Positions 9,273 through 50,694 of a stretch of DNA of 64,000 bases are shown piece by piece. Numbering within the stretch: the stretch's first letter is position 1; each line of letters opens with the position of its first letter. The notes under the pieces were generated by a model, which saw only the letters and a list, made by a program, of their open reading frames with translations, was not told the origin of the DNA and searched no databases. The translations under genes were made by a program, and so were the position numbers. The stretch lies in the IMG/VR virus record IMGVR_UViG_2974753081_000001, positions 72,320 through 136,319 of that record; one strand, given 5' to 3'. The stretch is from a virus (taxonomy: Duplodnaviria > Caudoviricetes).

Positions 9273-9298
9273 GTAACGATCTGGCCGGGGTAAGCGAT
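9273..9298 (+). promoter_or_regulatory. SigD-like promoter
   Basis: GTAACG-N17-GAT upstream of the tRNA region. Confidence 0.7.
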
Positions 9299-9416
9299 AC
9301 TCCTACCGACCCAGTGACTACCGGCGACACCCTCCACCCAACACATGCCGTCGGACTCGCGGGTCCGAACAACTGAATAGCGGGGCGCGTTCCTTAGCCG
9401 GGGGCGCGTCCGCAAT

Positions 9417-9489
9417 GCCCTGCTAGCTCACCGGACAGAGCAGCCGTTTCCTAGGCGGCGGGTACCAGGTTCGATTCCTGGGTGGGGCA
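9417..9489 (+). tRNA. tRNA-Arg(CCT)
   Basis: Cloverleaf: GCCCTGC/GTGGGGC acceptor, GCTC/GAGC D stem, GCCGT-TTCCTAG-GCGGC anticodon arm, CCAGG-TTCGATT-CCTGG T arm; CCA not encoded. Confidence 0.9.
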
Positions 9490-9490
9490 C

Positions 9491-9600
9491 GGGGCGGTAT
9501 TGGAGGAGTCATGACCTTCGTTCCGCCAGGGGCGCTCGGACGCGGGCGTGGCAAAGGAAGGACGAAATCCCGACGAGGTGGTTCGAATCCACCAGCCCCA
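9491..9600 (+). ncRNA. tRNA-like element with expanded anticodon region
   Basis: GGGGCGG-TA 5' end, perfect T arm GGTGG-TTCGAAT-CCACC, AGCCCCA 3' end, CCTTC/GAAGG helix enclosing about 37 nt. Confidence 0.45.
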
Positions 9601-9649
9601 CGATGGCGAGCGAGGGCTCGTCACACTCCCCGACCAAAGGAAAAATCTC

Positions 9650-10087
9650 ATGGAGACCCGTACCCTGATCGAGCCGTCTGCTCAGGTCATCACCATCACC
9701 ACCCTCAAGCCCGGCGACACCTACAAGCGCCTGGTGAAGAACTACTCCGACACCTACGACCTGCGCATCGGCGTGGTCACCGACGTGTTGAACAACGGCT
9801 CCGAGGCGGTCCTCACCGCGCTGGAGTTCTCTGGCAGCTACAGCACCGCCGAGGCCGAGCTGAAGGTGTTCGGCGGCGACAAGGACCTCGCGCTGTTCGC
9901 GACGACTCCCGAGGAGGTCGGGGTTTACCTCGATGACGTGAACGAGCGGGCTCACCAGATGGCGGAGTCCAAGCGGCGCGAGCTGGAGAAGGCCGAGGCC
10001 GTCGTGCGCGCGGTTGAGGACACCCTGGCGAGGGCACGCGGTGGTCAGCTGTCGGCTCCCGTGGTCGAGCGCCAGGTCGAGAGCTGA
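9650..10087 (+). CDS. Hypothetical protein
   Basis: ATG after CCCGACCAAAGGA, coiled-coil C-terminus. Confidence 0.75.
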   Translation: METRTLIEPSAQVITITTLKPGDTYKRLVKNYSDTYDLRIGVVTDVLNNGSEAVLTALEFSGSYSTAEAELKVFGGDKDLALFATTPEEVGVYLDDVNERAHQMAESKRRELEKAEAVVRAVEDTLARARGGQLSAPVVERQVES

Positions 10088-10437
10088 TGCCCACGCCCTA
10101 CGATGCCGCCCGTGCGGAACGTGTGGCCGATCTGACGAGGCAGGGCCTGAAGGCTCACGTCATCGCCGATCGTCTCGGCATCACCGTCCGCACGGTCCGG
10201 CGGGACCGGGCTCGCACCGGGACTTCGCGCGAGGTGCCGCGTCGGCTCTCCGAGGAGCAGGTGAGTCGCGCGCTGTCGATGCTGCAGGACGGCTGCGCCT
10301 ACATCGAGGTCAGTCGCACGCTCGGCATTCCGACCAAGACGCTGCGGCAGCGGTTCCCCGGCTACGGCATGGAGTCCGGCTGGGACTGGGCGCATCAGCT
10401 GCGCGGCATCGGCAAGTACCGACAGGAGGCGTCGTGA
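10087..10437 (+). CDS. Double helix-turn-helix DNA-binding protein
   Basis: IADRLGITVRTVRR and VSRTLGIPTKTLR HTH motifs. Confidence 0.8.
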   Translation: MPTPYDAARAERVADLTRQGLKAHVIADRLGITVRTVRRDRARTGTSREVPRRLSEEQVSRALSMLQDGCAYIEVSRTLGIPTKTLRQRFPGYGMESGWDWAHQLRGIGKYRQEAS

Positions 10438-10733
10438 ACAAGGACCCGTTCGAGAACCACCACGAGATCGAGGTGCGCGTGGCGCTGAAGGGCGAGAAGT
10501 CGGCCATGCTCTCTTCGCGGCAGCTCATCTATGCCTCGGTGGAGGTCTCCGACATCGAGCTGATCCAGCGGTTCACCTACGTGCTCTCCCAGATGACCAT
10601 CGAGGTGGAGAACGCGCTGCGAGCCAAGATCGGACTGCCCTCGCTGTCGCAGGCGGAGCGGATGGAGTACGAGCGGCAAGCCTACGAGCGCACGGCACAG
10701 CTCCAGCGCCTGCGGGGCAGGGGGATGGTCTGA
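10434..10733 (+). CDS. Hypothetical protein
   Basis: GTGA overlap start with GGAGG RBS. Confidence 0.65.
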   Translation: MNKDPFENHHEIEVRVALKGEKSAMLSSRQLIYASVEVSDIELIQRFTYVLSQMTIEVENALRAKIGLPSLSQAERMEYERQAYERTAQLQRLRGRGMV

Positions 10734-11114
10734 TGGCGCTCGGCGAGATGCCTCGCACTCCAGTGTGGATGGCGGTCCACACCCATCGGTCCGGTCGGAC
10801 GACGGTCTCGGTGGGGTACTCCAAGGCGACCGAGGTCGATGTGCAGTACGCGCCGTGGTGGCCCAACGAGGTCAGCCGGACGCTGTACAACTACGAGGAC
10901 GGCTTGCCTGTCCCGCAGATGGGATGGGGGCGCGAGTGAGGCTGCATCGGATCAAGGTAAGACGACCGAGCATCTATCCGCCGGTCTGGATCAACCACGG
11001 CCCCGGCATCGTCCGGCTGGACGAGGCGAACTGGCGCACCTTCAACGGCATCGGGTGGAAGTGGGGCACCTACACCTACTGGCTGTCCATTCGGTCTGAG
11101 GACGGGGTGCTCTG

Positions 11115-11366
11115 ATGGACCCGGTCCTGTTCCTGCTGCTCTACGGTCTCGGCGTGCTTGTCGAGGCGCTGTACCTGTACTGGCCGCTGCTGTTCGGCTC
11201 GAAAGAAAATCGCGAATCTACTCGCTTGGACTACGAGTCGGTCGCCCACTCCGACGACTGGGTGCTCATCCACGCGGTCATCTGGCTGACCTCGGTCACG
11301 TTCCCGGTGATCTGGGCGGTGACTTTGGTCGTATTCGCCAAGCGAGTCCTGAAAGGGAAGCCATGA
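11115..11366 (+). CDS. Small membrane protein
   Basis: Two hydrophobic segments. Confidence 0.65.
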   Translation: MDPVLFLLLYGLGVLVEALYLYWPLLFGSKENRESTRLDYESVAHSDDWVLIHAVIWLTSVTFPVIWAVTLVVFAKRVLKGKP

Positions 11367-11391
11367 ACCAGTCATCCGAGGGGATGGATCA

Positions 11392-12243
11392 ATGACGACG
11401 ACAGATCAACTGAGGGCCGCGAGGGCGGTCCTGGAGGCGGCGGGCTACGTCGTTCTCAAGAAAAAATCTTACGACGACATCCAGCGCAAGCGTCAGCGAG
11501 CCGAGACGCTGCTGGCGGCTGAGAGGGATCACCAGAAGAGCCTCTACGCCTGGATGAGCCAGCACTTCGAGGAGGAGCGTCGGCTGCGGGAGCGGCTGGT
11601 GTTCGTCTACGGCGTGGCGCGGGCTCACGGGGCACCGGTCGCGGAGCTGCACTCCCCCGAGGGAGCGATCCAGCAGGCTGAGGACGCCAACGGCGGCATC
11701 ATCACCGAGATCACCATCTCCGATCTCATCATCAGGAGCCTCAGCGCGGCGGTCTACGAGGACTACGTCGATGAGGAGACGGGCGACGAGCTGTGCCGGG
11801 TGGTGCCGGGCACCGAGGACTTCGGTCTGGTGGAGCTGTTCGTCCCCGTGGAGAGTATGGGCCTGATCTCTTTCAACAAGCCGGTCGACCTGACGGTGAA
11901 GGTGGCCCAGCCCGAGTCTCGTGACATCCGGAAGGTGGAGGCCCCTGAGGCCACTTTCGACTACGGGGATGTGGAGGTCGGCACGGGAGCGCCGGACCCC
12001 AACGTCGACTTCAACGTGACCGTCACCGAGCCGGAGCAGGCAGCTGAGTATCCCGGCGTGGCCTCCAAGGACATCACGAAGATGGAGTCACCGGCCTATC
12101 ACCCCGAGCCCCAGCCCTGCACCCCGGAGCACGAGGACGAGCAGAAGGCTGACCCCGTGGCCCAGGAGACGTCGATGTTCGAGTTCGATGACATCCGTTT
12201 CGATGATGACGACGACTTCGAGAAGGAGGCCAGTGATGACTGA
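11392..12243 (+). CDS. Hypothetical protein, acidic C-terminus
   Basis: 283-aa ORF. Confidence 0.7.
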   Translation: MTTTDQLRAARAVLEAAGYVVLKKKSYDDIQRKRQRAETLLAAERDHQKSLYAWMSQHFEEERRLRERLVFVYGVARAHGAPVAELHSPEGAIQQAEDANGGIITEITISDLIIRSLSAAVYEDYVDEETGDELCRVVPGTEDFGLVELFVPVESMGLISFNKPVDLTVKVAQPESRDIRKVEAPEATFDYGDVEVGTGAPDPNVDFNVTVTEPEQAAEYPGVASKDITKMESPAYHPEPQPCTPEHEDEQKADPVAQETSMFEFDDIRFDDDDDFEKEASDD

Positions 12244-12819
12244 GGTGACGCGGTTCGAGGTCGGGCAGACGGTCCTCACCCCCATCGGCAGGAGAGCGAC
12301 GATCGTGCGTGGGCCGTATCGCAAGTACGGCGAGGACTGCTACGACATCGTCCAGCCCACCGATCTCGGGGAGCCTGCCCGCTACACCCATCGCTACTTC
12401 GCCCGTCAGCTCAGGGCGGCAGGAGACGACGGATGAATATGCTGCGCCTGAATCTGCCGAAGGGGAAGTGGAACAACCCAGATATTCCGGAACGCGCCCT
12501 GCTGGTATCCCCTGGCTCCATCGTGGCCCTGGAAACGCTCAACCCTGATGTGACGGTGGTCCATGTGCAGGGGTATCGGTGGACGGTAATGCACTCGGTG
12601 GCTGCGATAGAGGCGATGCTCCAGGAGGCAGAGAAGTACGAACTGTACTCCCAGATCACCCGAGAACACCCCCTGAAGTAAAAAACCGACATCGAGGAAG
12701 TGTTGACACTACGTCTGCCCAGTCGGCCACTGTCCTTCGCACGCTGGGTGACCAGCGTAGTGTTAACACGAACCCCGACAGATTCTCTCGACAAATTATT
12801 GACAAGGACGTGACAAGCA

Positions 12820-13308
12820 ATGCAGCACCCTAATCTCGGTGAACAGGCGTTTCTCGGGCGAAATCAGAACTCTGTGCCCGATTTGAGTCGTCTCGGCTCT
12901 GCGGCCTCAGACGTCAATCCGATCACTGGTCATGACCCAGGGCAGCTGACTCCTACCGAGCGCAATCTGTGTGAGGCGGCGGCGATGCAGCTGAACCAGC
13001 GATGGATGCACAAGACCTACGATCCGGACTCCCCGGACTCGGTCTGGGACCAGTTCGCCAACGAGGCTCGCAACCAGTTCGCTGAGATCGGGTTCGTCAT
13101 CGACATCATGTGGTCGGAGATTCAGGCGGACGGCCTGCCCGGCACTGCGGCCATCCCTCAGATCACGGTGATCGGACGGACTGACCGGCACGAGACCGAC
13201 CATGAACGTATTCAGCACGAGGTGCGCAAGGGCCTGCTGGACGGCAAGGAGGGTGTCATCCGGGAGGACGGCACGTGGGCCGAGTCGGCGAAGCGGACGC
13301 AGCTATGA
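12820..13308 (+). CDS. Hypothetical protein
   Basis: 162-aa ORF with AAGGA RBS, downstream of paired GTAGTGTYRACA sites. Confidence 0.7.
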   Translation: MQHPNLGEQAFLGRNQNSVPDLSRLGSAASDVNPITGHDPGQLTPTERNLCEAAAMQLNQRWMHKTYDPDSPDSVWDQFANEARNQFAEIGFVIDIMWSEIQADGLPGTAAIPQITVIGRTDRHETDHERIQHEVRKGLLDGKEGVIREDGTWAESAKRTQL

Positions 13309-13502
13309 GCGTTCGTCGTCGTCAGATGAGGCACTGGCCCTACGTCCACCGCACGTGGTCCTGGGGCAGGGTCTACCGCGTCCTCAACGTCTCCGCGACG
13401 CCCCGACGGGTGACCTGGATGTTGCACTGTTCGTGGGATCGCAGGATCAACGCTCTGCGGTTCTCTGTGATGGAAGTGGCTCGATAGGAAGACCGACGAG
13501 CA

Positions 13503-13528
13503 GTAACGATTCCCGACCAAGGAGCGAT
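13503..13528 (+). promoter_or_regulatory. SigD-like promoter
   Basis: GTAACG-N17-GAT(GTAC). Confidence 0.7.
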
Positions 13529-13734
13529 GTACATCCCATGAGCGATCAAATGCACACCAAGGCGTGGTTCACCGGAGCTGCCACGGGTAGCGCGGATAAC
13601 GCCGATGACGAGTGGCGGGACTTCAGGCTCGACGGCGAGCGCGCTATCGAGGTGTCGTTTCTGGTGCCCGATTCGGCCATCGATGGGGTCCGCAAGCTGC
13701 TGAACGAGCGCGGCACGCTCACCTTCGCCAAGGC

Positions 13735-13760
13735 GTAACGGAGCGAGGGCTCCGAGCGAT
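13735..13760 (+). promoter_or_regulatory. SigD-like promoter
   Basis: GTAACG-N17-GAT(GTAC); TAA is the upstream stop. Confidence 0.7.
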
Positions 13761-14490
13761 GTACCCAGTAGGTCGAACTCGCGGTAACGATCTGGGAGAG
13801 CGTGCTAGGCGAGTATTGGGCACGCTTGCGGTCAACCTCTCCCGGATGACCTACACATAATTTTTCCTGAGGAGGATCATGACCGTCCCAGACAACGAGC
13901 TGATCGACCGGCTGCGCAAGCGGTACACCGTCGCTACGCCTCCGCCCTGCTCGGTCTGTGGCGCAGAGCTGCGGATCAGTTCGATGGGTGGCGGTCGGCA
14001 GACGTGGGCGTGCTCCACGACGCTCAGCAACGTCTCGGACGGTGGGCTGAAGCACTACGCCCAGAGCCAGTGGACGTGTGTGGTCGGCGACCCGGACGTC
14101 ATCGAGCTGATCTCTCGCTACCAGGCGTCGGCGTCGTGAGTAGCGGACAGCTGCCTCGGTGGCCGCAGTTTTTTCCGAAGATGAAGGTGCGAGGCAAGGG
14201 GCGTCTCCCTCGGACCCGCGTTGTCATATCTGGCGAGCTAATGGCGATCTATGACGAGGCTCTCCGGCTTGTTCGGGACATCAACATCGAGTGTTTCGGA
14301 GTGGACCACGTCGAGATCGCTCCGAAGTACGAGGGCCTGTATCAGCACGCCGATTACCGATACGAAAGGCATCAGGTGGTGGTGTCCCCCTCGCTGCCCG
14401 TAGGCCACAGCATCGCTCTGCCATTCTGTCTCGACTGCGGCGGTGAGAGCTGCCAGGTCTATCACTCCAACCCCTCTGAAGGAGACTCCG

Positions 14491-17205: not shown

Positions 17206-17231
17206 GTAACGAAACGCCGAGGGGCACCGAT
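17206..17231 (+). promoter_or_regulatory. SigD-like promoter
   Basis: GTAACG-N17-GAT(AC). Confidence 0.7.
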
Positions 17232-24838: not shown

Positions 24839-25243
24839 ATGACCGCCACCATCACCGAGGTGTCGCCCCAGACCGTCGCCACCGCGCGTCGGGCTCTGGC
24901 GCTCATCGCCTCCGAACAGCGCCTCATCGGCTACGCCGAGTTCGGCGACCTACTCACCGCGCTCGGCGTCGAGGGAGTGCCCCCGCGCGAGCACTACAGC
25001 CTCCGCAGCCGATACCTCGGCCACGTGCTCGGGGCTGTCGGGCTGGAGAACGGACGGCGCGGTGAGCCACTGCTGACCGCCATCGTTCGCCATGTCGTCA
25101 ACGGCAAGCTGGCCGAGGTCAACCCGAAGGGGTATGCCTGGCCGGTCGAGCAGGTCTACGGCCTGGAGCTGTCCAGCAACTCTGCCGTCGCCCACTCTCA
25201 CCGCGAAGCTGAGCGGTGCCACGCACACCAGTGGGTGCTCTGA
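24839..25243 (+). CDS. Hypothetical protein (paralog of 23738)
   Basis: IA..QRLIGYAEF...LGHVLG.VG.E..RRGEPLLTAIV. Confidence 0.65.
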   Translation: MTATITEVSPQTVATARRALALIASEQRLIGYAEFGDLLTALGVEGVPPREHYSLRSRYLGHVLGAVGLENGRRGEPLLTAIVRHVVNGKLAEVNPKGYAWPVEQVYGLELSSNSAVAHSHREAERCHAHQWVL

Positions 25244-25686
25244 TGGTGGAACTGACCCGAGCCCACGACCTCTCGGCTCGCGATGGTGTTGACGCTGCGG
25301 TCGCTGATGCGATCTCGATGCTGCGGGACGCGAAGAAGGCCATGCGCTCACGCACGCTCGCCGAGCTGATGCGCCTGGAGGAGTCCAGCGCCGAGTTCGG
25401 CACGTTCTCGGTGGTCCGCACTGCCGACCGCAAGGGGTACCGCGACCCGCGCAGCTTCAACGACGAGCGCAGCCCCTACCAGGACGACCAGAAGGTCCTC
25501 ATCACCATCGAGATCGAGGTGGAGGACTGGGACCTGACCGACGGCTTCGTCACTCACGCCGCCGAGCTGGAGCGAACCGAGGAGGCGCTGCAGGCCCAGG
25601 TGGAGATCGCCGAGGCGCAGCGCGTCATCGCCGAACAACAGGAGCGCATCGCACGGCTCGCGAAGAAGGTCGCCCCTGGGCCGTAA
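25243..25686 (+). CDS. Hypothetical coiled-coil protein
   Basis: TGATG-coupled; TAA stop lies inside GTAACG. Confidence 0.65.
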   Translation: MVELTRAHDLSARDGVDAAVADAISMLRDAKKAMRSRTLAELMRLEESSAEFGTFSVVRTADRKGYRDPRSFNDERSPYQDDQKVLITIEIEVEDWDLTDGFVTHAAELERTEEALQAQVEIAEAQRVIAEQQERIARLAKKVAPGP

Positions 25687-25708
25687 CGTTTTCTGACAGA
25701 CCACCGAT
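25683..25708 (+). promoter_or_regulatory. SigD-like promoter
   Basis: GTAACG-N17-GAT(AC) before the ltp-like gene. Confidence 0.7.
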
Positions 25709-25757: not shown

Positions 25758-26288
25758 ATGAGCACGAACTACCCGCAGGCCCCCATCCCCGCCACCGAGC
25801 CCAAGCGCAAGAAGCGCAAGTGGCCGTGGGTGCTGGGCATCCTCGCCGTCCTCGGCATCATCATCGCGGTTGCCAGCCCGAAGGAGGCCGAGACCTCCGA
25901 GCCCGCTGCGGCCCCGACCTCGCAGGCCGAGGCCCCGGCCAACGTGCCGACGCCCACTCCGGCTCCGGTCAAGACCGAGGAGGCCGAGTCGTCGGACTCG
26001 CTGTCCAAGGAGCAGAAGAACGCAGTGCGCTCGGCAGAGCAGTACGTCTCGATGACCGGGTTCAGCCGGTCGGGCCTGATCGAACAGCTCAGCTTCGAGG
26101 GCTACTCGACCGAGGACGCTACGGTGGCCGTCGACAGCATGGACATCGACTTCAACGAGATGGCTGCCAAGTCGGCCAAGCAGTACCTGGACATGACCGG
26201 GTTCTCGCGCGATGGTCTCATCGAGCAGCTGACCTTCGAGGGGTACACCCCCGAGCAGGCTGCCTACGGTGCCGACAACGCTGAGTGA
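25758..26288 (+). CDS. Ltp-family membrane-anchored surface protein (superinfection-exclusion-like)
   Basis: N-terminal TM, Pro/Thr linker, two repeats A..SA.QY..MTGFSR.GLIEQL.FEGY. Confidence 0.85.
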   Translation: MSTNYPQAPIPATEPKRKKRKWPWVLGILAVLGIIIAVASPKEAETSEPAAAPTSQAEAPANVPTPTPAPVKTEEAESSDSLSKEQKNAVRSAEQYVSMTGFSRSGLIEQLSFEGYSTEDATVAVDSMDIDFNEMAAKSAKQYLDMTGFSRDGLIEQLTFEGYTPEQAAYGADNAE

Positions 26289-27462: not shown

Positions 27463-28167
27463 TCCAGGTCAAGCCCATCGAGAACGAGATGTGGCAGGTG
27501 ACCAGCAACGGGCGCTGGTGGACCGTCGCGCGTATCCGCACCTTCACGATGGTCGGCTGGCACATCATGAACGAGACCGGTCGGACGATCAGCGCGGACG
27601 GCCAGCTCGGTCGCAAGCTGATCGCGGCGGTCCAGGCAAAGCTGGAGGAGGTCTGATGGCACAGACGAGGCGCGTGTGTGCGCGCTGCGGACGTGAGCGC
27701 GCAGAGAAGCACCTGGAGCGACTGTTCACCGCCCGGCCTTGGGGTCTCACCCAGACCAGGATTCTCCCGACCTCGGTGTGGGTCTGCTATGCCAGGACGT
27801 CGTGCAAGCAGATCGCAAAGGGGGAGCGTCGTGCAGCACGAGTCTGATCCCCAGGACGACATCGACTGGAGCGGCCCCGTCGAGAACATGGAACGCTTCG
27901 CCGAGTACATGCGGAACCAACCGCCGGACCTCCCTCATCTCACTGAGGGTGAATCGTCGCGGCAATGCCTGGATGCGGGCCTGGTGTGCTCCATCGACCC
28001 GCGTACGGGTAAATGCACCGAGTGCGGATGCTATGAGCATCCCGAGGAGAATCACGTCCACTTCGCCTTCGACGCCGCGCGACCCGGCTGGACGACGCCG
28101 ATCTATGACGTCCACGGGCACAAGGTCTCCGACCCGGTGCCGATCGACTCGCTGCCGAGACACGGCG

Positions 28168-28635
28168 ATGAGCGTCCCTGAGTACGCCACCACGGGTGTC
28201 GTGCTGCTGGCCCTGCTCATCGGCATGTACTGCTCGGCAGACCACCTTCGACGCCTGCGGAGGCAGAGCATGGACTGGACCGAGAACGCCCGGCAGCTGA
28301 TCGCGATGGAGGATGCTGCTCTCGCGCGGAGGTGTTCTGAGGAGAACGCACGCTGGCTGGAGGACCCGACCCACTACCTCATGGAGGTCACTGGACTCGA
28401 TGTCGCCAAGGTGCTGTTCGGCTACGTGCAGCGCGAGAAGGTATCTCTGGTCAAGGCACCCCGTCCCCGCCATACGACGGCAGGGTCCCTACCCAATACC
28501 GAGATCGTTCTCCATTTCACCAGGCCCGAGGAACTGGTCTCCCAGATCGTCGCCATGTCGCGCGTGTCGCCGCCGACGGGTGGGCAACTCGCGCGCATCG
28601 TCCGGGAAGTCGAGGACGGTTCCATCGACCTGTAA
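28168..28635 (+). CDS. Membrane-anchored hypothetical protein
   Basis: N-terminal TM; TAA stop inside GTAACG. Confidence 0.6.
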   Translation: MSVPEYATTGVVLLALLIGMYCSADHLRRLRRQSMDWTENARQLIAMEDAALARRCSEENARWLEDPTHYLMEVTGLDVAKVLFGYVQREKVSLVKAPRPRHTTAGSLPNTEIVLHFTRPEELVSQIVAMSRVSPPTGGQLARIVREVEDGSIDL

Positions 28636-28658
28636 CGATCTGCCCCGACCTGAGCGAT
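28632..28658 (+). promoter_or_regulatory. SigD-like promoter (18-nt spacer)
   Basis: GTAACG-N18-GAT(AC); close sequence match to the 9273 site. Confidence 0.65.
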
Positions 28659-28698: not shown

Positions 28699-29457
28699 AT
28701 GAGTCACTTTGTCGTCGTCGTCGCACTGCCCGGCCACCTGCTCACCCACGATGAGCTGGACGCGGCCTTGGATGCTGCACTGGCTCCCTACGACGAGAAC
28801 GTCGAGATGCCGCGCTACGTGCGGCACACTCGCGACGAGCTGATTAGGCGAGAGCGCGAGAGCATGGAGCAGATGTTCTCGATCGGATCGGTTGGAAGAT
28901 ACTTGGCCGATCCCGTCGAGTACGCCGAGAAGTACGGCGGCATGAAAGGGCACCTGGCCCACGTCCGCCAGCTCATCGATGAGAAGCCGCTCGACACCTG
29001 GACCGACGAGCAGTGGCACATCAGGGCGCTGCAGAGCTACGAGCCCGACGAGATCGGCCCCGTCGGCGAGGTCTACTCCACCTACAACCCACGCTCGAAG
29101 TGGGACTGGTGGAGTGTCGGTGGCCGCTGGGCGGGGTTCTTCAAGTTCCGCGAAGGCATCGATGAGGCGACCTACGACCGGCTCGGGACCAGGCCGTCGA
29201 TCTTCGACCTGCCCGAGGACATGGACCCGATGGCCACCGACTGCGCGCGCAAGGGCGACCTCACGCGCGAGAGCCTGGACCGCACTCCATATGCCTACGT
29301 GGACCCCGAGCTGGGGTGGATCGAGAAGGGCCAGATGGGGTGGTTCGGGATGTCCTCGGGCGACAAGCCTGAGTCCGAGTGGCAGGAGCAGTACGCCGCG
29401 TGGCTCGGCTCCCTGGACGACAAGACCTGGCTCGTGGCTGTCGACGCACATATCTGA
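28699..29457 (+). CDS. Conserved phage hypothetical protein
   Basis: MSHF.V.V...YNPRSKWDWWSVGGRW...VD.HI family pattern. Confidence 0.8.
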   Translation: MSHFVVVVALPGHLLTHDELDAALDAALAPYDENVEMPRYVRHTRDELIRRERESMEQMFSIGSVGRYLADPVEYAEKYGGMKGHLAHVRQLIDEKPLDTWTDEQWHIRALQSYEPDEIGPVGEVYSTYNPRSKWDWWSVGGRWAGFFKFREGIDEATYDRLGTRPSIFDLPEDMDPMATDCARKGDLTRESLDRTPYAYVDPELGWIEKGQMGWFGMSSGDKPESEWQEQYAAWLGSLDDKTWLVAVDAHI

Positions 29458-29468: not shown

Positions 29469-29936
29469 ATGATGGAAAAAATGCCGGACGACCGATTCGT
29501 CTGTGTCCTGTCTCCTGACGAGCCGCTGGAGCGGTTCGATGACGAGGGCAAGAAGGTCAGCGTTCGCGAGTACGTGGTGCAGCGCCGCGATGACGGGTAC
29601 GAGGTCATTCTGTACCAGCGGTATTCGGCCAACTCCAGCTCGTCCTACACCATCAGCAAGGGGATGGATCGGGGGATCGCGATGATGCTGGCCGACGAGC
29701 TGAACAAGCGCGAGAGCTACGATCCGCAGCCGTCGTCGTCTCTGGGCAAGGTGAGGTTCATGCTGGCAGACCTCCGCAAGCAGGTGTCGCGCGAGATCGA
29801 TGAGCACGACCGTCGGCTGTCCACCATGAACGCTTCTCGGGAGGCCCTGGAGGACCTGGAGGATTTGCTGGTGCGCGGGGAGCCGCTCACCGCCCCCGAC
29901 GTCGTGAGGCGATTCAACCAGGCGGGGGTGCTGTGA
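29469..29936 (+). CDS. Hypothetical protein
   Basis: ORF with RBS. Confidence 0.65.
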   Translation: MMEKMPDDRFVCVLSPDEPLERFDDEGKKVSVREYVVQRRDDGYEVILYQRYSANSSSSYTISKGMDRGIAMMLADELNKRESYDPQPSSSLGKVRFMLADLRKQVSREIDEHDRRLSTMNASREALEDLEDLLVRGEPLTAPDVVRRFNQAGVL

Positions 29937-30463
29937 TGGCCCGCTTCGTACACCGTCCGACGACCATTGAGGCGATGCAGTGGACCGGAGACAACGCCGA
30001 CGAACTCAGTCGGTGGATGGCCGGGTTCGGCGAGGCGTCGGCGCTGCGCATCTACACCGAGACCGGGGCCGAACAGGTCGTGCTCGATCTCTACGTCGCG
30101 GCCAACGACACCTGGCTCCCGCTGGAGATGGGTGAGTGGGTGGCGCGCGACGTCGCGGGCTTCTATCCGATCAAGGACTACGTGTTCCAGGAGAGCTACG
30201 AGTCCGAGCCCGAGGTCACCATGCTCACCCAGCCGTGCGGCTACGGGTCGTGCGTGGAGGGGTTCGGACACCTCGGGCCGCATCGGTGTTCGTGCGGCAG
30301 GCCGTGTAACGATCCGGAGCTGAACTGCGATGTACATGCAGCCGGTTGGGCCGAGGAGCCCCACCAGGCCAACGGCATGGAGGTGCTCGGGAAGATGCGC
30401 GCTGCTGGCGAAGTGGACGACGCGCTCGGGGCCTCCGACAGACACGGAGGATTCGATGCTTAG
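29936..30463 (+). CDS. Conserved phage hypothetical protein
   Basis: IEAMQWTG...GEWV...FYPIK..VFQESYE pattern. Confidence 0.7.
   Translation: MARFVHRPTTIEAMQWTGDNADELSRWMAGFGEASALRIYTETGAEQVVLDLYVAANDTWLPLEMGEWVARDVAGFYPIKDYVFQESYESEPEVTMLTQPCGYGSCVEGFGHLGPHRCSCGRPCNDPELNCDVHAAGWAEEPHQANGMEVLGKMRAAGEVDDALGASDRHGGFDA
30306..30331 (+). promoter_or_regulatory. SigD-like promoter (intragenic)
   Basis: GTAACG-N17-GAT(GTAC). Confidence 0.55.
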
Positions 30464-31650: not shown

Positions 31651-31676
31651 GTAACGCTCCGGCGGTCTCCGCCGAT
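31651..31676 (+). promoter_or_regulatory. SigD-like promoter
   Basis: GTAACG-N17-GAT(GTAC). Confidence 0.7.
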
Positions 31677-36960: not shown

Positions 36961-37380
36961 ATGAAGAAGACCATCGCTGCCCTCGCGGCTGCCGCCGCCA
37001 TCACGCTCGCCACCGGCTGCACCATCGAGACAGTCAGCGAGCCCACGACCACGACCACCCCGGCCCCGCTGCCGGTCGTCACCACGACCACCGTCGACAC
37101 TCCGCCCCCGCCGACCACCACCGAGATCGACAGTGAGTGGGTGGCCGATCGCGCCTACATCGCTGCGCTCGACCAGCAGGGCATCGACTACCCGACCGAG
37201 CAGGACGCCATCGACCTCGGCCACTCGATCTGTGAGGCCCTGGACTCCGGCAACTCCCCGCAGGAGCTGATCCGTGTCGGCGTGGACGCCAGCGGCATGG
37301 ACTCCCAGGACGTCGCCTTCATGGTTGGCGCGGCCATCGGGTCGATCTGCCCCCGCCACGACGATCTGATCCCCGAGTAA
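36961..37380 (+). CDS. DUF732-domain lipoprotein
   Basis: Signal peptide with lipobox LATGC, Thr/Pro linker, D.AY..AL...GI...AI..GH.IC...ICP. Confidence 0.85.
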   Translation: MKKTIAALAAAAAITLATGCTIETVSEPTTTTTPAPLPVVTTTTVDTPPPPTTTEIDSEWVADRAYIAALDQQGIDYPTEQDAIDLGHSICEALDSGNSPQELIRVGVDASGMDSQDVAFMVGAAIGSICPRHDDLIPE

Positions 37381-37402
37381 CACTTCGCTGGGCCGCAGCG
37401 AT
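37377..37402 (+). promoter_or_regulatory. SigD-like promoter
   Basis: GTAACA-N17-GAT(AC). Confidence 0.7.
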
Positions 37403-37437: not shown

Positions 37438-37884
37438 ATGAGTACTCGCAGTGTCACCGGCATCTGGAAGCCCGAAGGTGATCCGATCGGAGTGGGCGTC
37501 TACGTCCACAGCGATGGCTATCCGGAGGGGCGTCTACCGGACCTGAAGAAGATGATCACGCGCGACGGTCCCGAGAAGGTAGTCCAGACGATCCTGTCGG
37601 CCAAGCGTGGCGGCTGGTCCTACCTCGACGTCGAGTACGCCAACAATTATCTCGGCGAGGACCGTGCGAAGCTCGTGCCGGGCTACGGCCTGATGTTCCT
37701 CGACGGAGATCACGAGCCCAAGCCGCTGAGACACAGTGAGGTCATCAGGACTTTCTGGTGTGAGTACGCCTACTACATCGACGTCGAGACCGGCGACATC
37801 CACTGGTACGAGAGCAGCGACCCCACCGAGCACGTCGAGCTGTTCTCCGACTACGTGACCGAGGTCAAGAAGGTGGATTCCTGA
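37438..37884 (+). CDS. Conserved phage hypothetical protein
   Basis: MSTRS...YVHSDGYPEG...EYAY pattern. Confidence 0.75.
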   Translation: MSTRSVTGIWKPEGDPIGVGVYVHSDGYPEGRLPDLKKMITRDGPEKVVQTILSAKRGGWSYLDVEYANNYLGEDRAKLVPGYGLMFLDGDHEPKPLRHSEVIRTFWCEYAYYIDVETGDIHWYESSDPTEHVELFSDYVTEVKKVDS

Positions 37885-39163: not shown

Positions 39164-39478
39164 GTGACGTCGATGCAGTCGGTGTTCCAGCTCCCGTGGC
39201 TGGACCCCACCGACCGCTCCGAGAATTGGCGATCCCGCTCGATCTGCACTCCGGAGCACGACCACATCCTGTTCTCGGAGAAGCGTCGCGGATGGCGACG
39301 CGATGAAGACCTCCGTGCAGCTGCTCGGCTGTGCGGATCATGTCCGGTCCGGATGGACTGCCTGCTCTGGGCAACCAGGACCGGACAAACCCACGGAGTC
39401 TGGGGAGGAAAAGACTTCAGTGCTCGACCCGCGCGTACAACGCAGATGCGCTCGGTACACCCGACCAGAGGAGAATGA
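39164..39478 (+). CDS. WhiB-family Fe-S transcription factor
   Basis: C-x-C-xx-C-x5-C spacing (ICT...LCGSCPVRMDC) and GVWGG. Confidence 0.85.
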   Translation: MTSMQSVFQLPWLDPTDRSENWRSRSICTPEHDHILFSEKRRGWRRDEDLRAAARLCGSCPVRMDCLLWATRTGQTHGVWGGKDFSARPARTTQMRSVHPTRGE

Positions 39479-41878: not shown

Positions 41879-42296
41879 TGACCCCAGGAGATGATCATGA
41901 ACGAGGTGTGGGCGGTCACCGAGTCCGGCTGCCCCGAGGAGTGCTGCAATTACGTGAGCGGGACCACCGTGGTGGCCCTGTTCGACAACAAACAGGCCGC
42001 TGACCAGCTAGCTGACCGCAAGGGCTACGGGTTCTACTCCCAGCGCCTGCGCGTCTACCACGCCCCCAGGGACGTGCCGGAGTACCTCCGCACGTGACGA
42101 GAAGGAGAACCTGAAGATGATGATCGAATGCCGTGTCCGCGCTGATGTGGACATCAAGAAGTGGGCCGAGCTGTACGACACCGACGGCCAAAAGATCTCT
42201 GAGGTCCGCAAGGACATCCGCACCTGGATGCGCGAGACGGTGATCGACGCGATGGAGGACGAGGGCTTGCTGCTGCTCGACCCCGACGGCAAGCCG

Positions 42297-42322
42297 GTAA
42301 CGAACCTGTTCGAGTAGCCGAT
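42297..42322 (+). promoter_or_regulatory. SigD-like promoter
   Basis: GTAACG-N17-GAT(AC). Confidence 0.7.
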
Positions 42323-42366: not shown

Positions 42367-43002
42367 ATGCCCATCCTGACCATCGACGGCATCGAGGTGA
42401 CGATGACCGTCGCCGAGTTTGTCGAGTACCAGCGGCTGTCGAAAGCCGAACCGCCCCCGACGCCCGAGCCGGAGCCTCGCAAGACCCGTGGCAGCTCGCG
42501 CAAGCGCAACGACGCCGAACGTCGTCGCATGGAGCTGCAGCGGCAGGGGTACGCCAACGTCACCAACCTGATGAGCACCATCGTGTTCGTGCATTCGGTG
42601 CTGGAGTATGTGGTGCCCGGCTCCGAGAGCTACGACATGGACGGTGTCGAGGGTCGGCACGGCTGGCTGCTCTCGCGCGAGTCGGGGGAGGTGAACCGGC
42701 TCAACCGCTATGTCTCGGTCGCGCGCTCGCTGCAGCCCGGCGTCGGCGAGTACCTCTGGCCCCCGGCCATCGCGGCGGCGCTCATCTGCATCGAGATCGA
42801 CTACGGCGTCGACACCGCCATTGCGGCCCAGGGCGCGCTGTCGCGGCGCGGCGTGATCACTGCGGTGGTGAAGCTGCACTCCAAGGCGTTCCTGAAGCTG
42901 TCGGAGCAGGATCGCGCCGCCGGTCACATCCGGCTGCACCGGAACCAGCAGATGGAGGTCTGGAGCGGCACCTATGACCTGCTCGTGAAGGCGGTGGAGT
43001 GA
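42367..43002 (+). CDS. Hypothetical protein
   Basis: Preceded by a SigD-like site and double CCCGACC. Confidence 0.7.
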   Translation: MPILTIDGIEVTMTVAEFVEYQRLSKAEPPPTPEPEPRKTRGSSRKRNDAERRRMELQRQGYANVTNLMSTIVFVHSVLEYVVPGSESYDMDGVEGRHGWLLSRESGEVNRLNRYVSVARSLQPGVGEYLWPPAIAAALICIEIDYGVDTAIAAQGALSRRGVITAVVKLHSKAFLKLSEQDRAAGHIRLHRNQQMEVWSGTYDLLVKAVE

Positions 43003-43018: not shown

Positions 43019-43044
43019 GTAACGCTCTGGCTCGCTCGGACGAT
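43019..43044 (+). promoter_or_regulatory. SigD-like promoter
   Basis: GTAACG-N17-GAT(GTAC). Confidence 0.7.
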
Positions 43045-43745
43045 GTACTGGGCAGGCCATCCCGACCGAAGGAGAGAACATGGCAGAACAAGGCGACCCC
43101 GCTCAGGTCCTCAGCGGCCTCGGGGTCGGCGGCATGCGCCCACTCGCGGCGCTGGAGGAGTCGCGGCAGGCAGGCGAGGGCTTTCAGGCCATCGCCGCCT
43201 TTGTCGATTGGCTGCGAAACAACGGCATGGGTATCGGGCTGCGCCCCGTGCTCCCCGACGCCCGGTTGATCCCGCTGACGGACCCGGCGGAGGACTTCGC
43301 TGCTGCGTTCTACGACATCGACATCGAGGCACTACATGCCGATCGTGCCGAGTACATCTATCGGCAGCAGGCAGCTCGCGGCGGTCGGCTGTGACTGGTC
43401 ACTGCTCGGCCCCCATCGAGCACCGGGTGTTCTGCTACAACGGCGCGGAGGCCCGCCCCATCGAGGACTTCCGGCTCTGGAGCGACGACGAAGCCCCCAC
43501 CCACCAGGTGGAGGCACAGGACGTGCGGGTCGGCGACTGGATTGTTGCCACCACCCCTTACGATTCGTCGCGATCCAAGCGTCCATTCCGGGAGTACAGG
43601 GTCACCCAGACTCTCGCGCGCGAGGGCGCGGTGACTCTGGTGATGCACATCGGCTACGGACTCCGCCTCGGCCACAACTACGACGTCCACATTCAGCTTC
43701 ACCCCACCGACCTGATCTGGGTCTATCGAATCCCGAGGAGTACAG

Positions 43746-44489
43746 ATGAGCAAGAAGACCGTGCGCTTCGCCGAGCCGACCGTGATGGTGGCTTCGTACA
43801 GCCAGCCGAACCCTGAGCTGCGAGACATCCTCGGCGAGGTGAACGTCCCGGCGCTGCAGGTGGTCCCGGAGTTCGCCGGACGCGCGTGCTACCAGAGCTG
43901 GGACAAGCCCAACCCGGCGACCGCTACCAACGCGGGGTACCTGGCGAACATCATCAAGCAGAAGCACTTCAGCGTGATCGAGCACAGCTCCATCGGGTTC
44001 TACATCCAGGGCGTCTCGCGCTCGCTGACCCACGAGCTGGTCCGGCACCGGCACTTCTCCTACAGCCAGCTGAGTCAGCGGTATGTCGACAGCTCCGACG
44101 TCGGGTTCGTGCTGCCGCCGGACTTCGAGGGCGACGACGAAGCGATCGAGGTGTTCCGCGCGGACTGCGAGGACCGGCTGGAGATGTACCAGTGGTTCCA
44201 GGACCATCAGGCCAAGAAGGGCCTCGGCAAGAAGGCCACCCGACAGTCGGCTCGGTCGGTGCTGCCCAACGCCACCGAGACCAAGCTGGTGATGACCGGC
44301 AACCTTCGGGCCTGGATGGAGTTCATGGTCAAGCGCGACAACCCCGCCGCCGACGTCGAGATTCAGCGGTTGGCCCGCATGATCGGTCTGCACCTCGGCA
44401 CCCTGGCCCCGAGCGTGTTCGGCAGCGAGGCCCGCCCGCTCTGGGACGAGTTCCTGCGCGAGGCCGCTCAGCACGAGGCTCGGCAATGA
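43746..44489 (+). CDS. thyX: Flavin-dependent thymidylate synthase
   Basis: EFAGRACYQS, H.SV.EH, RSLTHELVRHRHFSYSQLSQRY, ARSVLPNATET. Confidence 0.97.
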   Translation: MSKKTVRFAEPTVMVASYSQPNPELRDILGEVNVPALQVVPEFAGRACYQSWDKPNPATATNAGYLANIIKQKHFSVIEHSSIGFYIQGVSRSLTHELVRHRHFSYSQLSQRYVDSSDVGFVLPPDFEGDDEAIEVFRADCEDRLEMYQWFQDHQAKKGLGKKATRQSARSVLPNATETKLVMTGNLRAWMEFMVKRDNPAADVEIQRLARMIGLHLGTLAPSVFGSEARPLWDEFLREAAQHEARQ

Positions 44490-46382: not shown

Positions 46383-46406
46383 CACACCCTCACCGAGGAG
46401 ATCGAC

Positions 46407-46809: not shown

Positions 46810-47331
46810 ATGACCGCCTTCGAGAACCGCCACGGGTTCACTCTGCATCGCACCCCCAGCCACGGCGATTTCGACCGCAAGACCAACACCGTGTTCGACG
46901 AGAATGTGGACCGGTGGGTGAACGCCGATGCGTTCTATGCCCACTACGGCATCGATGCACCGACCTACACCGACGCCGACACCCGCATGCCGTTCCGCAA
47001 GGCGTTCGCGATCGTCGTGGGCTCGGTGGCCGCGTTCCTGGTCTTGCTCGCGCTGACCGGCGGTCTCGGAGGCGGGCACGACGACACCTCGGAGCCGGTG
47101 ACCAAGGCCGACCGATTCCTCGCGCAGATGGAGGAGGAGGAGATCGCCAACACCCGTGGCGACACCGGGCAGCTGGAGGCCGGGTTCTGGATTTGCGGCC
47201 TGGCTCAGGACGGCTACTCCTATAACGAGATCGTCAACACCGTCTCCGACAACTCGCCGGGGCTCGGCTACGGCAAGTCGATGGTGCTGGTGTCCTACGC
47301 CATTGAGATCCTCTGCCCGCAGTACAGCTGA
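46810..47331 (+). CDS. DUF732-like membrane protein
   Basis: Central TM, D.FL...G..IC...LCP. Confidence 0.7.
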   Translation: MTAFENRHGFTLHRTPSHGDFDRKTNTVFDENVDRWVNADAFYAHYGIDAPTYTDADTRMPFRKAFAIVVGSVAAFLVLLALTGGLGGGHDDTSEPVTKADRFLAQMEEEEIANTRGDTGQLEAGFWICGLAQDGYSYNEIVNTVSDNSPGLGYGKSMVLVSYAIEILCPQYS

Positions 47332-47345
47332 GATACGATGGCCGC

Positions 47346-48104
47346 ATGGCCGAACTGAAGTGGCTAGGGCCACCCGGCAGCGGCAACTCCGCAGAGGTCA
47401 TCACCCGCGACGACGTCACTGCCAAGAAGGGCACCGCGATGTCGGCTGCCCAGATCGACGCCCAGATCAGTGCCGCGCTCACCGGCTACTCACTGAAGAC
47501 CTACGTCGACTCGCAGGACTCGCCCAAGGCGCTGCTGTCGTATGTGAACTCGCGCGACGCGACCAAGCTCACTCGCGAAATGCGCGGTGCTCCGAACGGC
47601 GCTCTGCCCCTGGACGCCAGCGGCATGATCCCCAAGGCGTACCTGAACAACAACTACCCCGCCTTCAACAAGGCGGTCCGGGGCTACTACTCCCCGGCGA
47701 GCTACGTCTCGACCAACTGGACCTCGCTCACCACTCAGAACGCCCAGAAGCTCTGCGCCGACATCACCATCCCCGACCCCGGCTATCCGTACCTGATCAT
47801 CCCGTATGGCTACTGGGAGTGTCAGGTCAACTCGGCCTCGGGCGACAACACCTACCCGGAGATCAACGTCCGCGTCGGCACGCGCGTGATCGGTCGCGGC
47901 GTGGGCGCGCTCAACATCATCGAGCCGCACAACTGCACCATCGGCCCCTACGACACCGTCGGCACGCCATTCACCGGCACCCAGACGGTGACCTGCCACG
48001 GCGGGCGCTGGAGGCCGTCTGGCTCCAACACCACGTCCATCAGCATCTTCGGGGCATCGACGGCCACCCCGCCCAAGCTGATCCTGTTCCTGGCTGCCGC
48101 GTGA
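47346..48104 (+). CDS. Fibre / minor structural protein paralog A
   Basis: KTYVDSQD, GAPNGALPLDASGMIP fibre-type motifs. Confidence 0.65.
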   Translation: MAELKWLGPPGSGNSAEVITRDDVTAKKGTAMSAAQIDAQISAALTGYSLKTYVDSQDSPKALLSYVNSRDATKLTREMRGAPNGALPLDASGMIPKAYLNNNYPAFNKAVRGYYSPASYVSTNWTSLTTQNAQKLCADITIPDPGYPYLIIPYGYWECQVNSASGDNTYPEINVRVGTRVIGRGVGALNIIEPHNCTIGPYDTVGTPFTGTQTVTCHGGRWRPSGSNTTSISIFGASTATPPKLILFLAAA

Positions 48105-48111
48105 GGTCGAC

Positions 48112-48855
48112 ATGGCGAAGCTGAAGAACGTCGGCGCGTACCCGAACACCGAGGACTCGCTCGGGCGCACCGACTTCATGAACACGACGTTCTCCGACCG
48201 AGGCGTGGTGCCCGCCGACGTCACCGCTGCGATGGATCAGGCCAAGGCCCCGCTCGCGCTGAAGACCTACATCGACGCCCAGGACGCGCTGTACACCACC
48301 AAGAGCTACGCCGACACCCAGGACAACCTGCTCATCGATGCCAGCCAGCTCGGGGCGTCCAACGGCATCGCCCAGCTCGGAGCCAACAGCAAGGTCACCG
48401 CGTCGGCTCTGCCACTGGCCGCAACCGTCCGGTCGCACAACTTCACCTACGGCACGATCAAGACGGTCTCCAGCGCGGGCGTCTACTGCACCAGCTTCAC
48501 CGTCCCCAACCCAGGGTTCCGGTGGCAGCCGCTGTGGTCGGGGTGGACGATGTCGCGCTACTACGCCTCGCCCTACTGCTTTCCGGGCGTCTCGATCCGC
48601 GACAGCACCGGCAAGTGGGTGGCCCGAGGCTACGGATCGGGGCGCAACCTCAACGAGTGGTATCCCACCCCAATCACCAACACCCGCTATGAGACCGCTC
48701 CGCCGATCTGGTACGACGGCTCGGAGACGTTCGATCTGTACTACACCCGCGAGTACGGCACCGGGCAGGTTCAGGTCGGCCACCTGTACTCGTGGTTCCA
48801 GTGCATGGTCGTCGCCGCAGCCAGCTCCACCACATCGCCGGTCGTCATCACGTAG
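48112..48855 (+). CDS. Fibre / minor structural protein paralog B
   Basis: KTYIDAQD, KSYADTQD, GASNGIAQLGANSKV. Confidence 0.65.
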   Translation: MAKLKNVGAYPNTEDSLGRTDFMNTTFSDRGVVPADVTAAMDQAKAPLALKTYIDAQDALYTTKSYADTQDNLLIDASQLGASNGIAQLGANSKVTASALPLAATVRSHNFTYGTIKTVSSAGVYCTSFTVPNPGFRWQPLWSGWTMSRYYASPYCFPGVSIRDSTGKWVARGYGSGRNLNEWYPTPITNTRYETAPPIWYDGSETFDLYYTREYGTGQVQVGHLYSWFQCMVVAAASSTTSPVVIT

Positions 48856-48865
48856 GAGGACATCC

Positions 48866-49636
48866 ATGCCCGCTCTCCGTAGCGTCGGCCCCGTCCCGGT
48901 CTCGGGCAACGGTCTGGTCACCCGTGGCACCGCCGACGCCATGCTCACCGGCATGGTGGGACATGACGTTCTCGCCTCGAAGGTGGATGCCGCTGTCGCG
49001 CCGTATGCGCAGAAGTCCTACGTCGACACCCAGGACGGCTTGCTCGCGACCAAGGCCCAGGTGGACGCTGGGGACGCGCTGCTGATGCCGACCAGCTGGA
49101 AGAACGCCGCCAACGGCGTCTGCGGTCTCTCCGGCACCGACCTGCCGACCGCCAGGGTTCCTCGGGTTCCGGTGCTGCCCACCATCTTCCAGCGGTCCTG
49201 GTACTACAACGACTTCACCCCGCTCGCCGCCAACGTCGGTGCTGAGGGTGAGATTGTCATCCTGAATGCTTCGATGCAGCTGCCCTCGAATGATCCGAGC
49301 GTCTACTACCGATTCATGTGTTTTGGCAACTTCGAGGGGTGGGCGCTCTCCGGCTCTGCCCCCTACAACAACCTCAGCGGCAAGCCGGTTTTCCGCGTGT
49401 ATGTCAACGGCTACCTGTGCGGATACGGAGCGGGGCGCAATGGCGCGGGCTCGGCAGCTCCGTCTCCAGTGCCGGTGACCCCGGTCGCCGACAACCTCGG
49501 GCACGTGCCGGGTACCGGATGGACGAACAGCACCGCGACGGTGCGCGTCACCATCGCCTCGGCGTTTGCGAGCACGATGGTCAAGTACGACCCGACGCCG
49601 CAGACGCTGCTGACGATCATCGTCGTATCTGCGTAG
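48866..49636 (+). CDS. Fibre / minor structural protein paralog C
   Basis: KSYVDTQD, NAANGVCGL; AGGAGG RBS. Confidence 0.65.
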   Translation: MPALRSVGPVPVSGNGLVTRGTADAMLTGMVGHDVLASKVDAAVAPYAQKSYVDTQDGLLATKAQVDAGDALLMPTSWKNAANGVCGLSGTDLPTARVPRVPVLPTIFQRSWYYNDFTPLAANVGAEGEIVILNASMQLPSNDPSVYYRFMCFGNFEGWALSGSAPYNNLSGKPVFRVYVNGYLCGYGAGRNGAGSAAPSPVPVTPVADNLGHVPGTGWTNSTATVRVTIASAFASTMVKYDPTPQTLLTIIVVSA

Positions 49637-49639
49637 GGC

Positions 49640-49691
49640 TTGCACTAAACGCTACACGTGTGTATATTCGTAGGTGTTAGGGACGCAGTCC
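49640..49691 (+). promoter_or_regulatory. SigA-type promoter cassette 6
   Basis: TTGCAC-N17-TATATT, TACAC-GT-GTGTA, GGAC-GCA-GTCC. Confidence 0.85.
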
Positions 49692-49715
49692 ACCACCCCC
49701 ACGAAGGGACCTCCG

Positions 49716-50651
49716 ATGACCACCACCGCTACCCGCAAGCACACCCGCAAGCCGATGTCGGCTGCCAAGCGCGAGCAGGCCGCTGCCGCCCGCAAGGAGC
49801 AGGCCGAGGCGCTGCAGGCCGGACTCGCCGCCCAGGTCGCCGAGATGGCTTCGGGTGCCGCGTGGCGCGACTACCTGGACTTCGCGGGCAACTTCCACCG
49901 CTACTCGCTGCGGAACACGCTGCTCATCATGGTTCAGCACCCCACCGCCACCTCGGTCGCCGGATACAAGGCGTGGCAGGAGCGCGGTCGCCAGGTCATC
50001 AAGGGCGAGAAGGCCATCCGCATCTATGGCTTCGCTCAGAAGAAGGTCGAGGACGAGGTGACCAAGGAGGTCACCTACCAGACCTACTTCCCCATCGTCT
50101 CGGTGTTCGCCGAGGACCAGACCGCGCCGATTACCGACGACATGATCGCCGACATCCGCAAGGCCAACCCGAAGGCGATCACGTTCGCCGAGGCTCCGGT
50201 CAACCCGACCCAACGCCTGCAGGGCACCGATGACACCGACATCCTCGGGCGCGTCGCGGCGTTCGTGGAGGGCAACGGCTGGGAGTTCGCCATCGAGGCC
50301 GTCGGCGGCGGAGCCAACGGGTTCACCACCATCGACGGCACCAAGCGCGTCGTGGTCGAGGCCAACCTGGCTCCGGCGCAGCAGGCCAAGACCGCGCTGC
50401 ACGAGGCCGCGCACATGATCCTCCACACCGACGAGGAGGGCATGGTTCTGGACCGCGCCACCAAGGAGCTGGAGGCCGAGAGCGCCAGCTACGTCGCCTC
50501 CAAGATGCTCGGCCTGGACTCCGAGGGCTACAGCATCGGGTACCTCACCGGCTGGAGCCAGGGCAACCCCGACGCGGTGAAGGCGACCGCCGAGCGGGTC
50601 CTGAAGGCCGCGCACCGGATCATCGAGGCGTTGGACCCCACCGACGACTGA
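49716..50651 (+). CDS. ArdC-like ssDNA-binding antirestriction protein with zincin-like domain
   Basis: FHRYSLRNTLLI.Q.PTAT.VAGYKAW..RGRQV.KGEKAI; HEAAH...ELEAES..Y. Confidence 0.85.
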   Translation: MTTTATRKHTRKPMSAAKREQAAAARKEQAEALQAGLAAQVAEMASGAAWRDYLDFAGNFHRYSLRNTLLIMVQHPTATSVAGYKAWQERGRQVIKGEKAIRIYGFAQKKVEDEVTKEVTYQTYFPIVSVFAEDQTAPITDDMIADIRKANPKAITFAEAPVNPTQRLQGTDDTDILGRVAAFVEGNGWEFAIEAVGGGANGFTTIDGTKRVVVEANLAPAQQAKTALHEAAHMILHTDEEGMVLDRATKELEAESASYVASKMLGLDSEGYSIGYLTGWSQGNPDAVKATAERVLKAAHRIIEALDPTDD

Positions 50652-50668
50652 CCGACCCGGCGGGGGCT

Positions 50669-50694
50669 GTAACGAATCGGCCCCCGCCACCGAT
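50669..50694 (+). promoter_or_regulatory. SigD-like promoter overlapping a hairpin
   Basis: GTAACG-N17-GAT; the -35 sits in the loop of GGCGGGGGC/GCCCCCGCC. Confidence 0.7.

Follow-up and report, generated by a model that had tools for sequence, protein, structure and literature searches.

Phages are known to have their genes transcribed with the housekeeping sigma factor of the host or to bring a sigma factor of their own, and regulons driven by phage sigma factors have been described in SPO1 (gp28 and gp33/34) and T4 (gp55). In this work we have analysed a stretch of 64,000 nt (the window) from the IMG/VR record IMGVR_UViG_2974753081_000001, which forms the last 64 kb, or right arm, of a complete Bxz1-like myovirus genome of 136,319 bp (100% complete by CheckV), and in it a two-box element, GTAACR-N16-CGAT, found in front of phage genes. 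As in the SPO1 and T4 regulons, a distinct and repeated class of putative non-SigA promoters marks a set of phage operons here; unlike in those regulons, no sigma gene was found in the phage, and the promoter has the consensus of a host sigma factor.

That factor is SigD, a sigma factor of the extracytoplasmic function (ECF) type, of group ECF40. In Mycobacterium abscessus, GTAACA/G-N16-CGAT was present at all 72 sites bound by SigD in chromatin immunoprecipitation sequencing (ChIP-seq) (PMC13537577); the SigD promoters of Corynebacterium glutamicum carry GTAAC(A/G) and GAT (PMC6338062), and the ECF40 consensus is GTAAC-N17-18-CGAT (PMC12019637). The phage sites therefore share with the SigD regulons of M. 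abscessus, M. tuberculosis and C. glutamicum the same GTAAC(A/G), 16-nt spacer and CGAT (PMC13537577, PMC6338062, PMC12019637), and the element of the phage is identical to the M. abscessus ChIP-seq consensus in its -35 box, its 16-nt spacer and its -10 box. In mycobacteria, the permeability of the envelope and the susceptibility to drugs are under SigD control (PMC13537577), and published work has shown that it is partly active in growing cells and is further released under envelope stress through degradation of the anti-sigma factor RsdA.

We propose that the 13 sites of this genome are ECF40/SigD-class promoters read by the host RNA polymerase with host SigD, a reading to which we assign a probability of about 0.65. 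Host SigD, which has a basal activity and is freed from the membrane anti-sigma RsdA by envelope stress, would be supplied or increased by the infection, presumably through the stress that infection causes. With transcription starting a few nucleotides past CGAT, the mRNAs would have short leaders or none, and the output would be about a dozen small-gene operons of the non-structural arm, including a tRNA, an Ltp-like exclusion lipoprotein and a gene run leading to thyX. The role of SigD as the reader is our inference, as are the way and the time in which it would be made available. A literature search found no paper on SigD-type promoters in phage genomes. The element itself is known; what is new, on computational grounds, is that a lytic phage lacking a sigma gene is predicted to employ it as an entire class of promoters.

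The two-box element in this phage and in its relatives

The window holds 11 exact GTAACR-N16-CGAT matches, all on the + strand and all at the positions reported in an earlier note on this DNA, which had been made from the letters alone and had described a phage regulon of 12 SigD-type promoters. Dinucleotide-preserving shuffles of the sequence, the enrichment check that the note had named, gave an expectation of 0.08 matches (standard deviation 0.27), in agreement with its rough estimate of fewer than 0.1, and 11 matches were reached in none of the 100 shuffles. The longer-spaced variant that it had seen at 28632 is present, with 17 nt between GTAACG and CGAT, so that a regulon of 12 stands for the window (11 sites plus this variant) and falls short for the genome, which has 13 members: 12 N16 sites and one N17 site on the + strand and none on the - strand. 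The thirteenth site lies at genome position 61501, 10.8 kb ahead of the window. As claimed, all the sites are on the coding strand. Since the + strand carries almost every gene of this genome, a coding-strand location says less than it might seem to, but the split of 13:0 between the strands stands.

The spacing is sharply fixed, with enrichment at no other spacer length genome-wide, and the spacers are unrelated from site to site while the boxes are constant, as the earlier note had also described. Allowing one mismatch added a single site (19432). The element is thus not surrounded by a cloud of degenerate copies, and each occurrence retains all ten core positions. The -35 box is GTAACG at 12 of the 13 sites and GTAACA at the other, and the four bases 3' of CGAT are biased to R-Y-A-C (A/G, C/T, A, C). 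At about 88 sites per Mb, the phage is far more densely supplied than the Mycolicibacterium senegalense genome, with about 2 per Mb.

Two explanations that do without a promoter function have to be weighed against these data. Chance clustering of a short motif is refuted, and we give it practically no credence, since 0 of 100 shuffles, with their mean of 0.08, reached 11 sites and the same excess is seen in the closest relative, described below. Alternatively, the elements could serve a DNA-binding protein of the phage as operators, or could signal termination or the processing of RNA; two sites lie in the loops of strong hairpins, and the genome contains another repeated cassette that has a palindromic operator. 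However, two short boxes at a fixed spacing, with unrelated spacers and one orientation, placed before a Shine-Dalgarno (SD) sequence and an ATG, have the architecture of promoters. The two-box element shows no dyad symmetry, and the surroundings of the sites are in general not richer in secondary structure than the control, with mean folding energies of -14.3 and -14.1 kcal/mol, respectively. We therefore consider a non-promoter role very improbable.

In a search with the baseplate protein, an identity of 69% was seen to Rhodococcus phage Finch and of about 58% to some 200 mycobacteriophages of the Bxz1-like type (cluster C). Finch (NC_054724, Finchvirus), a 139-kb myovirus, is the closest named relative, and the two phages are syntenic over their whole length, from the terminase to the lysis genes, with 35-85% amino-acid identity. 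Finch carries 15 GTAAC-N17-CGAT sites on the + strand and none on the - strand, plus one N16 variant, the spacer being counted here from GTAAC (N17 is thus the spacing of our N16 sites). By the GenBank annotation each of these sites falls on a gene boundary, and in seven of them the TAA ends the upstream gene. Two promoter-gene linkages are common to both phages, with the boxes kept and the spacers diverged: the junction before the gp63 homologue (61501 here, 55130 in Finch) and the site before the gp208 homologue, gene 9650-10087 (9273 here, 121248 in Finch). In Finch the SigD-type sites often have a GGTGTAAGG leader, and they also occur before lysin B and gp27. The earlier note had suggested a possibly middle gene class; because the class in Finch also precedes lysin B and a gene of the structural region, 'middle' timing is not established.

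Other Bxz1-like genomes gave a different picture. Phage I3 has one motif match, and 18 further Bxz1-like IMG/VR records have 0-3 matches each, without strand bias and at the level of a reversed-pattern control, so that among 21 Bxz1-like genomes the motif is confined to this phage and Finch. The motif-free relatives include a putative Rhodococcus phage E3 record and the closest capsid relative (G001), in whose 78 kb no site was found.

Host SigD or another factor?

Which sigma factor would read these promoters? Host genomes point to SigD. The genome of M. senegalense (6.1 Mb) has 13 exact matches to the element versus 5 for the control, and one of the 13 is just upstream of an ECF sigma gene. 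Of 151 genomes sampled from the GTDB family, 145 have an orthologue of this sigma (SigD), a tally that takes in one unpublished genome, G088, on which no other result rests. GTAAC[GA]-N16/17-CGAT, ending at the predicted ATG, was found in 19 of 20 further sigD upstream regions from Mycobacteriales; the sole exception belongs to a small 2.3-Mb genome and agrees with the Corynebacterium literature. The pattern derived from the sigD promoters also matches many named Rhodococcus (R. opacus, R. wratislaviensis, R. ruber, R. triatomae) and Nocardia genomes, and therefore precisely this element is in use at sigD in the host genus of Finch. The identity with the ChIP-seq consensus and with the sigD-upstream promoters across Mycobacteriales bears out the SigD-class assignment made in the earlier note. 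Compared with the host SigD regulons, the sites here are in a lytic phage genome, are about 40-fold denser, serve phage rather than envelope genes, and carry the extra R-Y-A-C.

Another host ECF sigma with overlapping specificity, for example SigH, might also be considered, as actinobacterial hosts have many ECF sigmas (28 sigma-70/ECF-profile matches in M. senegalense) and SigH weakly reads SigD promoters in C. glutamicum, an overlap that is documented (PMC6338062). SigH promoters have the form GGAA(T/C)...GTT (PMC6338062), whereas all 13 phage sites keep GTAAC and CGAT, which makes this reading very improbable.

The main rival to host SigD is a phage-encoded factor that the profiles do not see, for example a sigma that has diverged very far or a protein able to redirect a host holoenzyme, common to this phage and Finch. 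Its appeal is that the motif is limited to these two among the 21 Bxz1-like genomes, that additional bases are conserved after CGAT, that many large phages encode their own sigma and some motif-bearing phages have ECF-like genes, and that Finch alone has counterparts of about a dozen of the phage's genes of unknown function. The earlier note had seen no sigma gene in the window, and the profile searches that it had named confirm this and extend it to the complete genome: six-frame searches of the whole genome with Sigma70_r2 (PF04542), Sigma70_r4 (PF04545) and TIGR02937 gave no match, Sigma70_r4_2 (PF08281) gave only two sub-threshold helix-turn-helix (HTH) matches, the stronger one in an HTH protein, and phmmer with M. 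senegalense SigD against the phage genome had a best E-value of 1.1.

Several individual candidates for such a factor were rejected. Finch gp84 is annotated as 'RNA polymerase sigma factor' and has only a region-4-type HTH (30.8 bits) of family phrog_2931, for which a search of our whole phage genome gave no match; its slot here is filled by an HNH endonuclease (NUMOD4 + HNH_3; 5579..6166, + strand), and a locus search with the gp85 homologue found nothing related. The phrog_2931 family is full length in the motif-free I3, partial in Finch and absent here, so it does not track the motif. The Finch-only shared proteins that we inspected as hidden sigmas (179/145, 220 and 252 aa) are not sigma-like and have no Pfam matches. 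A gene for a WhiB-family transcription factor (39164-39478; PF02467, 6.8e-14) is shared with E3 and with four other phages that bear the motif; being absent from Finch and present in E3, it was rejected as a motif-linked factor. Furthermore, an exact match at ten positions, with the same spacing as host SigD, would need coincidence or mimicry if a phage factor were the reader. Because the complete genome has no sigma-70 region 2 or 4, ECF or phrog_2931 match, a host sigma is favoured over a phage sigma, and we judge a phage-encoded factor unlikely, though the most serious of the rivals.

Nevertheless, some of our observations sit poorly with host SigD as the reader. The R-Y-A-C after CGAT is absent both from the published host consensus and from the host sigD promoters. 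Nineteen Bxz1-like genomes lack the motif above background although their hosts also have SigD, a lineage restriction that would also fit a lineage-specific phage factor. Among the other motif-bearing phages, which are described in the next section, some have a gene for an ECF-like sigma, a clear one in G182 and weak matches in G175 and G176. Finally, no obvious SigD-releasing factor was found in the phage: a search of this phage and of Finch for the SigD-binding domain of RsdA (PF16751) yielded nothing at E <= 1, and a hidden Markov model built from four phage RsdA-like fragments reached a best E-value of 1.5 against the phage.

The same promoter type on unrelated actinophages

IMG/VR was also scanned with extended patterns; matches to a 14-base pattern were mostly single chance matches, and the counts used here are whole-record counts versus a reversed-pattern control. 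Five unrelated actinophage records were enriched in the motif, with reversed controls of 0-1: G172 (115 kb, 17 sites), G173 (11 sites), G175 (153 kb, 12 sites, all on one strand), G182 (6 sites) and G176 (5 sites). They share with our phage the core motif and its place relative to the SD sequence and ATG, most of their sites being upstream of an SD sequence and a start codon, and differ from our phage and Finch in their unrelated gene content and, in four of the five, in carrying a PF16751 match right after such a promoter. This RsdA domain scores above the Pfam cut-off in G172 (37 bits) and G176 (28 bits) and is weak in G182 and G173, and each of the four matches is just downstream of a SigD-type site. 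That phages carry a fragment of the host anti-SigD factor beside these promoters speaks for a tie between the promoter type and SigD itself. ECF sigma matches were none in G172 and G173, weak in G175 and G176, and clear in G182, where the gene at L497:1462-2043 (TIGR02937, 57 bits) is weakly similar to SigD by BLAST.

A longer consensus, CGAT-A-Y-A-C-C-nn-GTGTAAGG, is common to these records (loci L502-L513 of G172, G173, G175 and G182). This region looks like a promoter-leader cassette spreading between actinophages, or like a conserved mRNA 5' end. Both in these records and in Finch, the shared start region is often followed by a hairpin and ACACGGAGG before the ATG.

We put forward, tentatively and as a proposal that may well prove wrong, that a lytic myovirus without sigma or anti-sigma genes wires much of its non-structural operons to the envelope stress of its host: damage from infection would free SigD from RsdA, the alarm of the host would become the trigger of the phage, and the promoter type with CGAT-AYACC-nn-GTGTAAGG would circulate as a cassette among unrelated Mycobacteriales phages. 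More generally, an entire set of promoters geared to an ECF stress sigma of the host, in a phage without a sigma gene, would be a different control strategy, with phage expression tied to the state of the mycolic-acid cell envelope, and the interplay between phage and SigD could matter for phage therapy and for phage-antibiotic combinations in Mycobacteriales. The idea is directly testable with Finch and its host R. erythropolis RIA 643 in culture.

Individual sites and neighbouring elements

The sites are co-oriented with, and upstream of, genes that mostly have an SD sequence and a start codon, many of them small and of unknown function. The earlier note had placed 11 of the 12 window sites at gene boundaries, had read the TAA of GTAAC as the stop codon of the upstream open reading frame (ORF) in five cases (13735, 25683, 28632, 31651 and 37377), and had listed a tRNA region, an ltp-like gene and the run to thyX downstream; all of this proved correct, the site off a boundary being 30306 and the genes being tRNA-Arg, PF07553 and PF02511. 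At eight window sites, 29-49 nt separate the final T of CGAT from the nearest downstream start codon that has an SD sequence. This distance is short at 13503 (9 nt) and 30306 (<=4 nt), which on this spacing are candidates for leaderless mRNAs, and long at 13735 (118 nt to the gene) and 9273 (118 nt to tRNA-Arg).

The first SigD-type promoter of the window (9273..9298; this and all the following are on the + strand) starts 20 nt past the stop of gene 7925-9253, with its -35 box in the loop of a strong hairpin. The transcript that it would head contains tRNA-Arg(CCT) at 9417-9490, the only tRNA that ARAGORN found in the region after this promoter, gene 9650-10087 and an HTH gene (10087-10437). 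The promoter at 13503..13528, 16 nt past gene 13275-13487, is followed 9 nt after its -10 box by ATG 13538, the start of a candidate leaderless ORF of 66 aa. The stop of this ORF (13538-13738) is the TAA of the promoter at 13735..13760, and the next gene is 13879-14139. The promoter at 17206..17231 is intergenic, with ATG 17273 41 nt downstream. At 25683..25708 the TAA is the stop of gene 25216-25686, and 49 nt separate the promoter from the Ltp-like superinfection-exclusion lipoprotein gene (25758-26288; PF07553, 5e-29).

The promoter with the 17-nt spacer (28632..28658) takes its TAA from the stop of ORF 27739-28635 and is 40 nt from gene 28699-29457. The site at 30306..30331 overlaps ORF 29933-30463 and is the only one off a clean boundary; it may head a leaderless gene that starts at ATG 30330/30336 and runs to 30677. 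At 31651..31676 the TAA closes an ORF that ends at 31654, with 31 nt to ATG 31708. The sole GTAACA site (37377..37402) uses the stop of gene 36961-37380 and lies 35 nt from gene 37438-37884. The promoter at 42297..42322 overlaps the final 20 nt of gene 42117-42317, with 44 nt to gene 42367-43002, and 17 nt past the latter gene the promoter at 43019..43044 heads a run from 43080-43394 onward to thyX (43746-44489; PF02511, 6.5e-51). The last one (50669..50694), whose -35 box is again in the loop of a strong hairpin, is 18 nt past an ArdC/IrrE-like gene (49674-50651) and 29 nt before gene 50724-51203. The ArdC/IrrE-like gene, just upstream of this promoter, codes for a 325-aa protein in which an ArdC N-terminal (anti-restriction) domain occurs together with a peptidase domain of the IrrE/M78 type. 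Hairpins at the -35 box were rejected as a general feature of the class, because they are strong at only 2 of the 13 sites (9273 and 50669) and the mean equals the control; these two are probably the terminators of the preceding genes.

A second promoter class, of SigA type, is interleaved with the SigD-type promoters and is absent from Finch. It consists of 11 near-identical strong copies of TTGCAC, a 17-nt spacer with the dyad TACAC-NN-GTGTA, and TATATT, each followed by a GGTGT(A/C)AGGG leader, a short GC hairpin and an SD sequence. Nine copies are in the window (20514, 24220, 34676, 41102, 49653, 51572, 52056, 52805 and 53168) and two lie ahead of it, at genome positions 25690 and 57856. 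Finch thus differs from our phage in having gp84, with its region-4-like HTH, and in being without the TACAC-NN-GTGTA class. The orthologue of Finch gp27 has a SigD-type promoter in Finch (L007:22816) and a SigA-type one here (genome 25690), with a similar GGTGTnAGG leader in both; because the promoters differ in type and the leader is shared, the promoter core appears to have been swapped at this locus.

Directly before many SD sequences, and in most of the SigD-type leaders, there is a CCCGACC element, often as CCCCGACCAAGGAG, with 64 copies on the + strand and 21 on the - strand of the genome; examples in the window are at 13512, 25732, 28644, 28670, 31690, 37416, 42335, 42349, 43061 and 50705. 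The closest capsid relative, G001, has a TCCGACCAAGGAG variant of this element. Near the end of the window (60190-63387) is the gene for a lysin of 1065 aa with four modules, a Rv2525c-like glycoside hydrolase, Amidase_2, Peptidase_M23 and DUF4185.

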